A stretch of DNA of 64,000 bases from Candidatus Krumholzibacteriota bacterium (GTDB taxonomy: Bacteria; Krumholzibacteriota; Krumholzibacteriia; JAJRXK01), in NCBI GenBank assembly GCA_963764625.1, contig CAVXTH010000009.1:928001-992000 (forward strand), given 5' to 3'. Shown piece after piece: positions 33,178-35,510 of this stretch. The position numbers and the translations under genes are program-made. Numbering within the stretch: the first letter of the stretch is position 1; every line of letters begins with the position of its first letter. The notes under the pieces were generated by a model. That model worked only from the letters and a program-made list of their open reading frames with translations. It did not search any database and was not told the origin of the DNA.

Positions 33178-33927
33178 ATGGCACTCGATGCGAAGAAAGT
33201 GACGGAGGTGGAACGCGAGCTCACGCGAATTCGCAACGTGAGCTATGCGTTCCTGGTTCTCGATGTTCGGCGTGAGATCGAGCAGGTCGACATCCTGAGC
33301 GATACGCAGCGTCCGCCGCGCCCGATCGTTCGCGACGTCGAAGCGGTCCTCCGTCGGCATGGCGTGGAAGTTGATCATCGCAAGATCGGCGTCGTACAGC
33401 TGAACCCCCCTCAAAGCTCCTCACCATTCCCGGATCGGACAACCGCCACGCGCAGGCCACGGGCTTCCCGTCCGCGAATTCGGCTATCCGCGGTTCATTC
33501 CACCACCAGTGGCGGAAACTTCATCGCGGAGGTCGAGCTGAGCCTCGGGGTCTTCGAGGGCCTTCCCGGCCGCTGCGAAGGGCCCGCCCTGGATGAGGAC
33601 GCCTGCGTGGCCCTCGTCGCCTGCGCGGCCGTCCAAGCGGTGCGCAACTTGCTGAAACCCCAGTATGAGATCCAGCTGAGGACCACCAGAGTGGCCTCGG
33701 TGGCGGGGGCTTCCCTGGTCATCGTCGCTCTGGACTTCGGCTTCAATCGCCAAATCCAGCGTCTGGCCGGCACCTGCTGGGAGCGCGGATCTTTGTATGA
33801 AGCAACGGTTTATGCCTGTCTTGATGCCCTGAACCGGCCCCTGGGCCGGGCGGAGTTTCAGGACCTGATGGTGCAGGACGAAGGCGCAACGCCCGAGCAG
33901 CTCTCGTGGCGGGCCGCCTCGGCCTGA
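33178..33927 (+). CDS. Conserved-looking hypothetical protein with a LeuA-regulatory-domain-like C-terminus
   Basis: CAGGTGG SD; N-domain IVRDVEAVL...VDHRKIGVVQL, Pro/Arg linker, C-domain ending EATVYACLDALNR. Confidence 0.7.
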   Translation: MALDAKKVTEVERELTRIRNVSYAFLVLDVRREIEQVDILSDTQRPPRPIVRDVEAVLRRHGVEVDHRKIGVVQLNPPQSSSPFPDRTTATRRPRASRPRIRLSAVHSTTSGGNFIAEVELSLGVFEGLPGRCEGPALDEDACVALVACAAVQAVRNLLKPQYEIQLRTTRVASVAGASLVIVALDFGFNRQIQRLAGTCWERGSLYEATVYACLDALNRPLGRAEFQDLMVQDEGATPEQLSWRAASA

Positions 33928-34092
33928 TGGCAAGTCGCGAGCTATGTCGCGGTCTCTTTCTGGCCGGTTGAGGGGAGTTGTCTGCAGAAAAAACCCGAGC
34001 GGAGCAAAACATTCCCGAGCGCGTAGCGAAGCCTCACTGCCGCCCCCTTAGCGGAGCATGGCGGCAAATCCAATCCGATGTGAGGTGGGAAC

Positions 34093-34128
34093 ATGTTCTG
34101 GGTCCTCGGTAGCAAGGTGAAGTGGTAG
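34093..34128 (+). CDS. Candidate 11-aa micropeptide MFWVLGSKVKW
   Basis: ATG TTC TGG GTC CTC GGT AGC AAG GTG AAG TGG TAG with GAGGTG SD (34082-34087) 5 nt upstream; ends 29 nt before the HD-GYP start. Confidence 0.6.
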   Translation: MFWVLGSKVKW

Positions 34129-34157
34129 TCTAACTCCTCTCAGCCGGCCTTGATTCC

Positions 34158-35510
34158 ATGCGAGTACGCCGAAAATCAATCGCGATCCTCTATGTCCTCG
34201 CCCTCACCCTGGCCGCAATCGCCCTGGGTGCCTGGGTATTCCAGCGCTATCCGATCCTCTCGCACCAGTGGCTGCCGATTCTGTGCTTCAGCGCCTTCCT
34301 GATCGGAGTCGACTTCTTCGAGGTCAAGACTTCGGCCGGGGGGGATTGGCTTGCCTCCTCGACCATCGACATTGCCGTCATCGCCACCCTGGGTCCCGCA
34401 GCGGCGATGCTGATGGAAGGGGCCAGCCTTTTCGTGGGCGACGGCCTGATCAAGCGCCGCTCCCCCTTGAAGGTGCTCTTCAACGTCGTGATGATGACCT
34501 TCTCCGTCGGGGTCGCAGGCGTCGTGTTTCATTCGCTTCCCTGGAGCGGAGTGGACAATCTGTCCTCGCCCTTGTTTCTGATTCCCGCCCTGGTGGCTCA
34601 CATGGTGTTTTCGGGCGTGAACATGACGCTCACCAGCACGGTCCTCGTGTTGAACGAAGGCCGCACCTGGAATCAGGTTTGGCGTGGTGATTACGCGTGG
34701 CACTTTCTGAGCGGTCTTCTTGCCGCTCCTTTGAGCGCATTTCTCATCTTCTCCTACGAGTACGCGGGACTCTGGTCGCTGCTTCTCTTCGGTCTTCCCC
34801 TCTTCATCATCTGGCAGAGCCACAAGCTCTTCGAGGAGATGAAGGAGGCCCACATCAACACCGTGGCCGCGCTCACCACCGCGCTGGAAGCGGACGAGCC
34901 CTATACCCACGGTCATAGCTACCGGGTGGCCAAGTACGCGGTCCAGATCGGACGGAGGATGGGAATGGGTCCAGAGGAACTCGAAGAGCTCGAGTACGCC
35001 GGACTGCTGCACGACATCGGCAAGATCGCCATCACCAACGACATCGTCTGCAAGCCGGCGCGACTGACGAAGGACGAATTCGACATCCTCGCCTCCCATC
35101 CGGCGATCGGAGGCGAGATCGTCTCGCAGATGAAGTTCCTCAAGGGCGCCGCCGACCTGGTGCGCCACCACCACGAGCGCCCCGATGGTCTGGGCTATCC
35201 CGATGGGCTGCGCAGTGGAGAAAACAAGCTGGGGAGCAGAATCTTGAATTGCTGCGACGCCATCGACGCCATGACTTCCAATCGTCCTTACCGGGCCGCG
35301 CTGACCCTCGAGCAGTGCATGGACGAGTTGCGCCGCTTCAAGGGGAGTCAATTCGCAGAGGACGTGGTCGACGCCATCGAGGAGATGTACCAAGAAGACA
35401 CCTTCAAGGTCATCGCGCAGGCCGACGGGACGGCTCTGGAGATCCAGAGGATCCTCCACGACGCGGCGTCGCGCGAGACGGAGGTACCGTCCACTGTTCC
35501 AGTGGGCTGA
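34158..35510 (+). CDS. Multi-TM membrane-sensor HD-GYP phosphodiesterase (probable c-di-GMP PDE)
   Basis: About 220-aa polytopic N-terminus; YTHGHSYRV, LLHDIGKI, HHHERPDGLGYPDGL, DAIDAMTSNRPYR. Confidence 0.92.
   Translation: MRVRRKSIAILYVLALTLAAIALGAWVFQRYPILSHQWLPILCFSAFLIGVDFFEVKTSAGGDWLASSTIDIAVIATLGPAAAMLMEGASLFVGDGLIKRRSPLKVLFNVVMMTFSVGVAGVVFHSLPWSGVDNLSSPLFLIPALVAHMVFSGVNMTLTSTVLVLNEGRTWNQVWRGDYAWHFLSGLLAAPLSAFLIFSYEYAGLWSLLLFGLPLFIIWQSHKLFEEMKEAHINTVAALTTALEADEPYTHGHSYRVAKYAVQIGRRMGMGPEELEELEYAGLLHDIGKIAITNDIVCKPARLTKDEFDILASHPAIGGEIVSQMKFLKGAADLVRHHHERPDGLGYPDGLRSGENKLGSRILNCCDAIDAMTSNRPYRAALTLEQCMDELRRFKGSQFAEDVVDAIEEMYQEDTFKVIAQADGTALEIQRILHDAASRETEVPSTVPVG

Follow-up and report, generated by a model that had tools for sequence, protein, structure and literature searches.

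A candidate micro-gene and its predicted leader RNA ahead of a MASE9-HD-GYP gene in Krumholzibacteriota and other phyla

Single-helix proteins such as MgrB and SafA with PhoQ, KdpF, AcrZ and CydX are encoded beside or near the complex that they bind, carry a small-residue packing patch and often go unannotated. Here we describe a candidate micro-protein gene in a stretch of 64,000 nucleotides (nt) from a Candidatus Krumholzibacteriota bacterium (GenBank assembly GCA_963764625.1, contig CAVXTH010000009.1, positions 928,001 to 992,000), which we call the window and by whose positions all coordinates are given unless a locus is named. The gene is an open reading frame (ORF) of 11 codons between an uncharacterised gene, here named unk, and a gene for a protein with a MASE9 membrane domain and an HD-GYP domain. 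The family in which we place it is like the MgrB-type proteins in size class, single helix, small-residue patch and gene placement, with binding to the adjacent membrane protein predicted weakly, and it differs from them in being shorter (11-29 amino acids, aa, as a rule), enclosed by a conserved RNA helix and tied to unk. We know of no MgrB-type small protein for an HD-GYP or MASE9 protein.

Peptide pheromones of the Firmicutes offer a second comparison. Phr, NprX and SHP/ComS are encoded by ORFs of 20-45 aa beside a receptor gene and have a basic N-terminus followed by a hydrophobic core, with the activity in a short and often Trp-rich C-terminal segment; the receptors of these pheromones are cytoplasmic RRNPP/Rgg proteins reached after re-import. 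The micro-proteins differ in that no match to such pheromones reaches a curated threshold and in that the Krumholzibacteriia forms carry no export signal. A third comparison is with PepNL and TnaC, where, according to the accessible part of the work, a very short ORF (14 residues in PepNL) upstream of the regulated gene exerts its effect at termination (PMC11890864); the micro-ORF shares this size and position, and its form in the window ends with Trp directly before the stop. In contrast, PepNL arrests at UGA, whereas the stop after the terminal Trp of the micro-ORFs is never TGA (0/40), the sequences are unlike and the long members of the micro-protein family resemble membrane helices. In Clostridioides difficile, the accessible text of a 2026 study describes small membrane-associated proteins under class I riboswitches for cyclic di-GMP (c-di-GMP) (PMC13724677). 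These resemble the micro-protein in being small, membrane-associated and under an RNA element in c-di-GMP signalling, but as far as that text goes they are longer (helix 4 spans residues 40-57) and follow a known riboswitch, while here there is no Rfam match, the ORF lies inside the structure and an HD-GYP gene is the neighbour.

The downstream gene of the window belongs, by its Pfam matches and its intact motif, to the MASE9-HD-GYP phosphodiesterases. The article describing MASE9 proposes, in its accessible part, ligand binding inside the membrane, which would fit a small hydrophobic partner, and states that the sole studied member, HdgA of Streptomyces venezuelae, is poorly expressed (Galperin and Chou; bioRxiv 10.1101/2021.11.05.467447). 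Unlike the module in the window, the enzymes are presented in that part of the article with no mention of an upstream micro-gene, a partner protein or a leader RNA. Judged by analogy, MgrB-type proteins, stop-codon leader peptides and pheromone pro-peptides are the closest working analogues, and none of them is a relative. No description of the micro-gene or of the leader RNA was found in the accessible parts of the literature on MASE9, HD-GYP and PepNL, a coverage that leaves out subscription journals. What is new is the micro-protein family, the candidate RNA class and the placement of the large unk family; the MASE9-HD-GYP enzyme is already known.

The micro-gene and its relatives

The micro-gene, its Shine-Dalgarno (SD) region and the two genes on either side are as follows:
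34093 to 34128, plus strand: micro-gene, MFWVLGSKVKW, 11 codons and TAG (peptide-level conservation, synonymous changes, family alignment A8)
34080 to 34087, plus strand: SD region of the micro-ORF, GTGAGGTG (GAGGTG or GGAGGTG precedes the micro-ORF in 30/30 Krumholzibacteriia sequences)
33178 to 33927, plus strand: unk gene, 249 aa (large unnamed family; ferredoxin-like N-terminal domain and C-terminal domain like the regulatory domain of LeuA and citramalate synthase)
34158 to 35510, plus strand: MASE9 and HD-GYP gene, 450 aa (Pfam MASE9 and HD_5, both over their cut-offs)

A first-pass annotation of the window had drawn attention to this ORF as an SD-led micropeptide gene, and the coordinates read exactly as it gave them: the start codon occupies 34093-34095 and the stop codon 34126-34128, GAGGTG stands at 34082-34087, 5 nt from the ATG, and 29 nt (34129-34157) separate the stop from the HD-GYP ATG at 34158. 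A filter for chance occurrence, defined as an SD-like word, 8-30 codons and a W ahead of the stop, has 107 matches on both strands of the 3.57-Mb genome, or 0.015 per kb per strand, so that about 0.004 matches are expected in the 230-nt spacer. The survey upstream of HD-GYP relatives that the annotation had proposed came out in favour of the ORF, since the same filter is matched in 27/80 genome loci against about 1.3 expected and variation is highest at third codon positions.

Relatives in the window's own family have the micro-ORF, preceded by GTGAGGTG as in the window, at 8/9 loci, the ninth being interrupted by N. It takes the forms MFWVLGSKVKW, MFWVLGSKIRW, VIAWLLGSKIKW, MRWLMSVMLAGHIKW, MRFLEMLLQAINLGGKVYW and MTFLEMMLDFFSLAG(I/V)IKW. 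Two further families of Krumholzibacteriia carry it at four loci, as a 14-codon ML[DN][WF]..GLF.K[FW]EW and as a 19-20-codon MFKFIFDLFFGDLLLTKTWW; the pattern-based collection of Krumholzibacteriia micro-ORFs left out locus L004 (MFWVLGSKIRW). Among 16 distinct versions of the 14-codon class, the entropy at codon positions 1, 2 and 3 is 0.61, 0.46 and 1.11 bits, as compared to about 1.6 bits in the 45 bases on each side, and the corresponding values are 0.90/0.53/1.43 in the 24-codon class (n=8) and 1.48/1.22/1.78 in the 25-codon class (n=20). The codon-position pattern, together with the more variable flanks, points to purifying selection on the protein. Between loci L001 and L004, whose flanking proteins are 59% and 76% identical, the peptide keeps 9/11 residues, with V replaced by I and K by R, and shows one synonymous change. 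On this comparative evidence the 11-codon ORF is very probably a real, conserved coding gene.

Two RNA libraries, drawn from two studies, yielded contigs over 33828-33990, 33956-34107 and 34014-34129 of close relatives, with DNA carry-over possible. These contigs leave most of the HD-GYP body (34192-34947) uncovered, such holes being uninformative, and strand, ends and level cannot be read from them. Contigs of one DNA run (X1, labelled as a salt marsh metagenome) extend over 30/30 bins of window positions 33100-35600, mostly at 90-99% likeness, and several soil and salt-marsh runs contain part of the same interval. Run X1 may comprise the sample from which the window came.

The family extends well beyond the class. 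In metagenome-assembled genomes (MAGs) of a Firmicutes lineage (UBA5435), of an Atribacterota member and of an unclassified bacterium, unk is followed by a leader with AGCGRAGC and the helix P1 described below, by an SD-led ORF of 25-28 codons ending in W and by MASE9-HD-GYP, and the unk protein of the window matches that of the Firmicutes MAG with a BLASTP E of 2e-17. Short ORFs of the type ...G...KW ahead of membrane HD-GYP genes, which the first-pass annotation had mentioned for other phyla, do occur there. When metagenome contigs were searched with a profile built from distant unk proteins, at least 579 relatives came up, of which 80 loci were kept. AGCG[AG]AG occurs at most 400 nt downstream of unk in 70/80 of these loci and a MASE9-HD-GYP match lies further downstream in 47/80; among the 33 without such a match, 30 have less than 900 nt of sequence there. 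A family-like small ORF is present in 48/80 (24-45 codons including the MAG versions), a count that depends on the filter, as the 51 family-like entries were picked by hydrophobicity and a G-G-A-like pattern. P1 was scored in 50 of these 51, one being short of flank (L121-type duplicates apart).

In alignment A8 the family is laid out as Met-Lys/Arg, a hydrophobic stretch, L-[AST]-[GSC]-G-A and x-hydrophobic-K/R-(W/I/L), and some members extend with WPPP or a longer Pro-rich tail. The 81 ORFs are 11 to 43 codons long, 25 being the commonest length. Most members have 24-29 residues and are mostly signal-peptide-like or single-helix. An Eisenbacteria MAG (L083, about 2140-2280) has a 45-codon version that reads MMNFLMLLEELAGEIL..., continues with three DGK(G/A)GW repeats and ends in W-TAG, preceded by a leader with GCGAAGCGAAGCGAAG and AGCGGAGCG. 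The micro-peptides are covered by no Pfam or NCBIfam model. Matches of the family's N-terminal part to PhrK (E 0.062), NprX (E 0.039), LptM and LPAM_1 (lipoprotein signal; E 0.021) are all below threshold, and the signal-peptide layout of the 24-29-aa relatives is seen by eye only. TGA stops are rare, with 3/81 among all micro-ORFs, 0/30 in Krumholzibacteriia and none in 40 after a terminal Trp (TAA 21, TAG 19), whereas TGA ends about 62% of the long ORFs in the window's genome. This scarcity may reflect a need for release factor 1 (RF1) or for tight termination.

The window's LGSKVKW lines up with the AGGAMFKW and AGGAWMKW ends of relatives, and the ending G-x-x-x-K-W singled out in the first-pass annotation turns out to be the C-terminal signature of the family. 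The peptide shares with the family its place between unk and MASE9-HD-GYP, all three genes lying on one strand, as well as the C-terminal G-x-x-hydrophobic-K/R-W and the enclosure by P1 and AGCGRAGC. Its N-terminus is devoid of Lys and Arg and its hydrophobic start comprises just 5 residues, as opposed to the basic N-terminus and the helix of about 15-18 residues of the family; the n-region, h-region and small-residue cleavage region of a Sec-type signal peptide are absent. As far as sequence comparison allows, the micro-proteins form a widespread, so far unnamed family, and the 11-codon ORF is its truncated local member, filed there by position, leader and C-terminus.

The leader RNA around the micro-gene

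The first-pass annotation had overlooked a structured leader RNA around the micro-ORF, whose elements are these:
33962 to 33980, plus strand: 5' strand of helix P1, GGCCGGTTGAGGGGAGTTG (19-bp ungapped pairing with G-U allowed, minimum-free-energy (MFE) fold, covariation over 80 sequences)
34131 to 34149, plus strand: 3' strand of P1, TAACTCCTCTCAGCCGGCC (starts 3 nt past the micro-ORF stop; 8 nt remain between its end and the HD-GYP ATG)
33998 to 34005, plus strand: AGCGGAGC motif, copy 1 (part of a three-copy cluster unique in the genome)
34025 to 34032, plus strand: AGCGAAGC motif, copy 2, GAGCGRAGCG (most conserved leader element; columns invariant or at least 90% in alignment A6, 80 sequences)
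34032 to 34037, plus strand: CCTCAC anti-SD, complementary to GTGAGG at 34080-34085 (paired in MFE and centroid folds; conserved in the window's own family, f1)
34038 to 34066, plus strand: P3 hairpin, TGCCGCC / GGCGGCA, with AGCGGAGC copy 3 in the loop at 34050-34057 (fold)
33934 to 33953, plus strand: terminator-like hairpin with a weak T-run just past the unk stop (consensus scan, 3 sites in the region against 1.8 expected)

The stretch 33955-34165 folds with a minimum energy of -83 kcal/mol (z -2.5). An ungapped P1 of 10-19 bp is present in 29/30 Krumholzibacteriia sequences despite wide sequence divergence, and its 3' strand begins 2-18 nt past the micro-ORF stop in 28/30. RNAalifold recovered 13 P1 pairs from 15 sequences of the 14-codon group, many of them with compensatory changes. 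Across all groups, P1 was assessed in A6, an alignment of 80 sequences whose ends were set at fixed distances from the ORF, without reference to the helix (L147 was left out because of its short flank). Its 14 P1 pairs are paired in 79.4% of cases versus 63.2% after shuffling (0/500 shuffles as high) and 29-45% with the partner slid; the covariation score is 0.513 versus 0.256, and double changes occur in 14/14 pairs. The ORF has the same orientation in every locus and no recombinase was found among the examined ORFs beside the module, which argues against an invertible DNA segment.

Inside P1, two AGCGRAGC motifs are single-stranded. A third AGCG[GA] occurs in 60/80 sequences and in 55 of these 60 lies in a hairpin loop closed by a stem of at least 5 bp, the mean stem being 7.5 bp against 3.6 in shuffled sequences. 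In another sub-family the stretch from SD to ATG (GGUCUUCUC) is by eye complementary to sequence overlapping the 3' strand of the hairpin, a pairing reminiscent of an expression platform. For the inner leader, RNAalifold on the full set of 80 sequences yielded no consensus (energy 0.0), owing to poor alignment of the variable hairpin by MAFFT, and the anchored counts given above were used instead.

Several known explanations for these elements were considered and rejected. Nothing in Rfam 15, which includes the c-di-GMP-I and c-di-GMP-II riboswitches, matches window positions 32900-35700 or the leaders of 10 diverse loci at E<=1, which speaks against a known riboswitch or RNA family; hits elsewhere in those loci are raiA, tRNAs and sub-threshold cspA and Plastid-ycf2. 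A regulon of AGCGRAGC sites in the same genome was dismissed, as the three-copy cluster is unique and the six other pairs within 120 nt have two copies. Control by CsrA through the GGA-containing AGCGGAGC motifs was discarded as well, since CsrA (PF02599) was not found in the 96%-complete genome. The cspA thermoregulator matches lie further upstream in L130 (1825-2165, 74.4 bits) and L138 (1600-1975, 50.7 bits), below the gathering threshold of 78. From fold, covariation and conservation we conclude with high confidence that the leader is a structured RNA, and with its invariant nucleotides it is a candidate for a new structured RNA class.

The genes of the module and their neighbours

In the 450-aa ORF, MASE9 (PF20972) matches residues 68-208 with 38.8 bits (cut-off 24.3) and HD_5 residues 241-399 with 103.2 bits (cut-off 27.2), and the HHExxDGxGYP motif is intact as HHERPDGLGYP, bearing out the polytopic membrane domain and intact HD-GYP domain that had been called from the sequence. 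A MASE9 search over the six-frame translated genome gave a single match of 41.9 bits, the window gene, and the H, D, G, Y and P of the HD-GYP motif are invariant in alignment A1 (12 sequences). By its domains the protein is an ordinary MASE9-HD-GYP family member and a putative phosphodiesterase. The ATG at 34158 is the first possible HD-GYP start because an in-frame stop ends at 34133, and no SD precedes this ATG in any of the nine loci of the window's own family. In the Atribacterota locus L087 the MASE9 and HD-GYP parts are two ORFs (2483-3118, 211 aa, and 3181-3876, 231 aa). A second gene of HD_5/HD-GYP type often follows MASE9-HD-GYP (L130 5258-6511, L155 5195-6511, L158 5282-5971), and in L138 the next gene (5229-5789) is a DUF5317 gene.

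The unk protein, left uncharacterised in the first-pass annotation, matches no Pfam or NCBIfam family. A homolog is present in 61/61 sampled genomes of the class, and a profile search gave 4229 representative clusters (50% identity) at E<=1e-3 and 3012 at 1e-10; among the relatives seen, all names are 'hypothetical' except for one JGI label, 'predicted nucleic-acid-binding protein'. The AlphaFold (AF2) model has a predicted local distance difference test (pLDDT) score of 86 and is divided into two domains. The first (residues 1-77) has the common ferredoxin-like fold (best Z 9.0), while residues 99-223 resemble the regulatory domain through which citramalate synthase binds isoleucine (3f6g_B; Z 9.4, root-mean-square deviation 2.8, 108/115 aligned) and the C-terminal half resembles the LeuA regulatory domain (Foldseek E 2e-5, prob 1.0). 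Since there is no sequence-family match, the likeness to LeuA and citramalate synthase is one of fold only; the model suggests that the C-terminal domain could bind an effector.

In loci from outside Krumholzibacteriota, unk is immediately preceded by a gene for a long-form hibernation promoting factor (hpf; Ribosomal_S30AE and S30AE_C) in 6/6 loci by Pfam, at these coordinates of the respective loci:
L076, 561-1208: long-form hpf
L087, 971-1507: long-form hpf
L124, 2241-2831: long-form hpf
L130, 2263-2778: long-form hpf
L138, 2259-2786: long-form hpf
L155, 2273-2812: long-form hpf
By tblastn, hpf precedes unk in 22/58 metagenome loci with enough upstream sequence. The window's genome has a short-form hpf at 53285-53551, about 18 kb downstream and not adjacent to unk. 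In the Atribacterota locus L087, a raiA RNA (RF03072; 617-833, 175 bits against a gathering threshold of 101) lies upstream of hpf, which gives the cluster order raiA RNA, hpf, unk, leader with small ORF, MASE9, HD-GYP.

The outer neighbours in the window are a PfkB-family kinase gene upstream (32105-33043) and a gene with AIRS and AIRS_C matches downstream, a purM-type AIR synthase (35562-36605), in agreement with the earlier placement of the trio between pfkB and purM. Further downstream, a 229-aa ORF (36760-37449) has a C-terminal Fis-type HTH_8 as its sole Pfam match, and neither an AAA+ nor a receiver domain was detected in it. By tblastn, unk is followed by HD-GYP on one strand in 23/31 fetched loci, two of which are the window's own, with pfkB ahead of unk in most; at the other eight, one gene was missed by the 1.5-kb flank or the threshold. 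That unk co-occurs with MASE9-HD-GYP across phyla substantiates its earlier assignment to the module.

The leader and the micro-gene come and go together. Every micro-ORF locus with a measurable spacer has at least one AGCG[AG]AG, and the motif is absent from 14/15 measured Krumholzibacteriia-like loci that are free of a micro-ORF; an apparent exception from outside these loci, an Eisenbacteria locus with three motifs, contains the 45-codon ORF. No micro-ORF accompanies the MASE9 genes that lack unk (Actinomycetota and other Eisenbacteria loci). The idea that the peptide is fused to the N-terminus of HD-GYP where the micro-ORF is missing was rejected, since the N-termini there are the first MASE9 helix. 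Hence, joint presence and loss define the unit as unk, the leader with the micro-gene, and MASE9-HD-GYP, with a middle part that can be lost as a whole.

Proposed coupling and membrane action, and alternative readings

Conservation, a coding signature, RNA helices and gene linkage are established here, and from these we infer the following course of events. The AGCGRAGC elements and the hairpin would form a sensor whose binding partner may be a metabolite, the unk protein itself or some other factor, and the state of this sensor would set access to the SD of the micro-gene, which is otherwise paired with the anti-SD. A ribosome at the micro-gene stop would cover a third to half of the 3' strand of P1, from the end nearer the stop, and thereby melt the helix, whose opening would make HD-GYP translation follow that of the micro-gene. 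The peptide, as a small subunit of the MASE9 membrane domain or as its intramembrane ligand, would then tune cyclic-dinucleotide hydrolysis. The position of the micro-ORF within a conserved structured RNA points to translational control and to coupling with the HD-GYP start, and so does the 3' strand of P1 between the micro-gene stop and the HD-GYP ATG; in 28/33 scored metagenome loci the HD-GYP start lies 20-91 nt past the micro-ORF stop. On balance we take translational coupling of this kind to be somewhat probable, and similarly modest confidence attaches to the best overall reading, in which the leader RNA gates the translation of the micro-protein, HD-GYP translation is coupled to that of the micro-gene and the peptide acts on MASE9.

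Action on MASE9, taken by itself, is a tentative proposal to which we give slightly less than even chances. A complex prediction for a 38-aa family member with its own MASE9, both supplied as alignments, reached an ipSAE of 0.44 (runs 0.48, 0.43 and 0.44) against 0.00 for the best of three controls, with a partner pLDDT of at least 57 and a contact agreement of at least 63%, and was graded as weak support. In the calibration the mark was reached by 58/80 solved complexes and 2/110 mismatched pairs, and just 7 of the 80 solved complexes reached it at scores of 0.60 or less, as did both mismatches; the score therefore raises the odds for action on MASE9 just slightly. The first-pass annotation had read the trio as a three-part peptide-signalling module with the peptide as ligand or intramembrane regulator of the sensor domain. 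The conserved ORF, its signature and the gene linkage uphold this in part; the ligand or regulator role is tentative, the complex prediction with the 38-aa relative giving it weak support.

A number of observations weigh against the proposed control of the enzyme by the leader and peptide. The leader and micro-ORF are missing in 8 of the first 22 relatives' loci that have both flanking genes and in 17 further Krumholzibacteriia-like loci, and the families concerned have the HD-GYP frame abutting or overlapping the unk stop; as HD-GYP thus persists in sister families, the enzyme can dispense with the peptide. The 11 residues of the window's form are too short for a membrane span, the basic N-terminus and most of the helix being lost, and the complex was predicted for the distant 38-aa member and not for the window peptide, with a score in a band where wrong passes outnumber right ones unless the complex is likely beforehand. 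P1 as a plus-strand RNA is only modestly backed, in that G-U-tolerant helices are longer than A-C-tolerant ones in 37/80 sequences, shorter in 22 and equal in 21. The missing SD at the HD-GYP start is ordinary here, an SD core being found at 21% of the first ATGs of long ORFs versus 11% in the background (crude gene set). Finally, the RNA-library contigs are the sole hint of expression, and the support for translation is comparative.

The same layout could serve a cis-acting leader peptide, an upstream ORF in which the act of translation, or an effect of the nascent peptide at the W-stop in the manner of TnaC and PepNL, opens P1 and sets HD-GYP translation, the released peptide being functionless. 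We regard this as a serious rival, even if we think it distinctly less probable than a peptide with a function of its own. It would account for the 3' strand of P1 just past the stop with the HD-GYP ATG close behind, for the joint loss of leader and ORF, for the avoidance of TGA after the terminal W and for the short forms being best conserved at the C-terminal K/R-x-x-W and the stop. A peptide of 11-14 residues is at termination wholly inside the ribosomal exit tunnel, and PepNL, an arrest peptide of 14 residues, works at a stop codon according to the accessible part of its description (PMC11890864). However, other phyla conserve the whole peptide with its basic N-terminus, a hydrophobic run of 14-18 residues and a G-G-A patch, none of which is needed for arrest in the tunnel, and the C-termini vary by sub-family (W, I, M, R, WPPP, Pro-rich tails) and thus present no single stalling motif; the weak complex support for packing on MASE9 also counts against a functionless product.

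The family alignment is laid out like a signal peptide, and the micro-gene adjoins a membrane sensor gene. The forms of about 25 aa might therefore be Sec-type signal peptides with a small-residue c-region (A-G-G-A), releasing a mature peptide of 3-8 residues (e.g. x-hydrophobic-K-W) that MASE9 senses outside in the manner of Phr, NprX and SHP. We hold such an exported pro-peptide to be improbable: the sub-threshold PhrK, NprX, LptM and LPAM_1 matches are the sole library hits, but all lie under curated cut-offs and mirror general signal-peptide composition, neither an n-region nor a complete h-region is present in the Krumholzibacteriia forms (11-20 aa), which hence cannot be Sec substrates, and no linked peptidase or exporter gene was found among the examined ORFs. 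A type I toxin-like or selfish hydrophobic peptide gene, its mRNA locked by 5'-3' pairing and SD sequestration as hok-type mRNAs are, would explain a small hydrophobic peptide with a strong SD masked by an anti-SD and with long-range pairing of the transcript ends. We consider it very improbable given a single copy with a motif cluster unique in the genome, a position and orientation fixed between the same two genes across phyla, sub-families that look vertical and an 11-aa local form too short for membrane damage. Equally hard to credit is a purely non-coding RNA in which conserved RNA structure, or inverted repeats in the DNA, would leave the frame open incidentally. The region is highly structured with invariant nucleotides, and the asymmetry between G-U and A-C is merely modest, yet variability rises from codon position 2 over 1 to 3, the flanks vary more than the ORF, and frame, start, SD and stop survive a length change from 11 to 45 codons with amino-acid classes conserved under differing codons; the constant orientation and the lack of a recombinase among the examined ORFs, noted above, tell against the inverted repeats.

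Beyond the translated, leader-gated micro-protein favoured above, a wider and considerably more doubtful reading would join four parts, all of them undescribed, into one ancient module, spread over several phyla, that controls a cyclic-dinucleotide phosphodiesterase. The leader would be a new class of sensor RNA, either a riboswitch or a protein-binding leader, with the invariant GAGCGRAGCG and the hairpin-loop UAGCGG, enclosing the micro-gene; the micro-protein would be an intramembrane ligand or subunit of MASE9; unk, with its LeuA-type regulatory domain, would be a partner that senses an effector and binds either the leader or the enzyme; and in many lineages the adjacent hpf would link the module to ribosome hibernation, the micro-ORF reading translational capacity into c-di-GMP turnover.

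Taken together, the locus presents an unusually clear case for a gene far under annotation thresholds (11-29 codons), with comparative support that spans Krumholzibacteriota, Firmicutes/Clostridia, Atribacterota and Eisenbacteria MAGs as well as hundreds of metagenome contigs, and it provides a first context and a fold lead for the unnamed unk family with its thousands of representative clusters. The enclosure of the ORF by the closing helix of the leader is a layout that could couple sensing, micro-protein synthesis and enzyme synthesis. MASE9 is among the many membrane sensor domains of c-di-GMP enzymes that have no known signal, and the genetically fixed micro-protein is a testable candidate for its partner.

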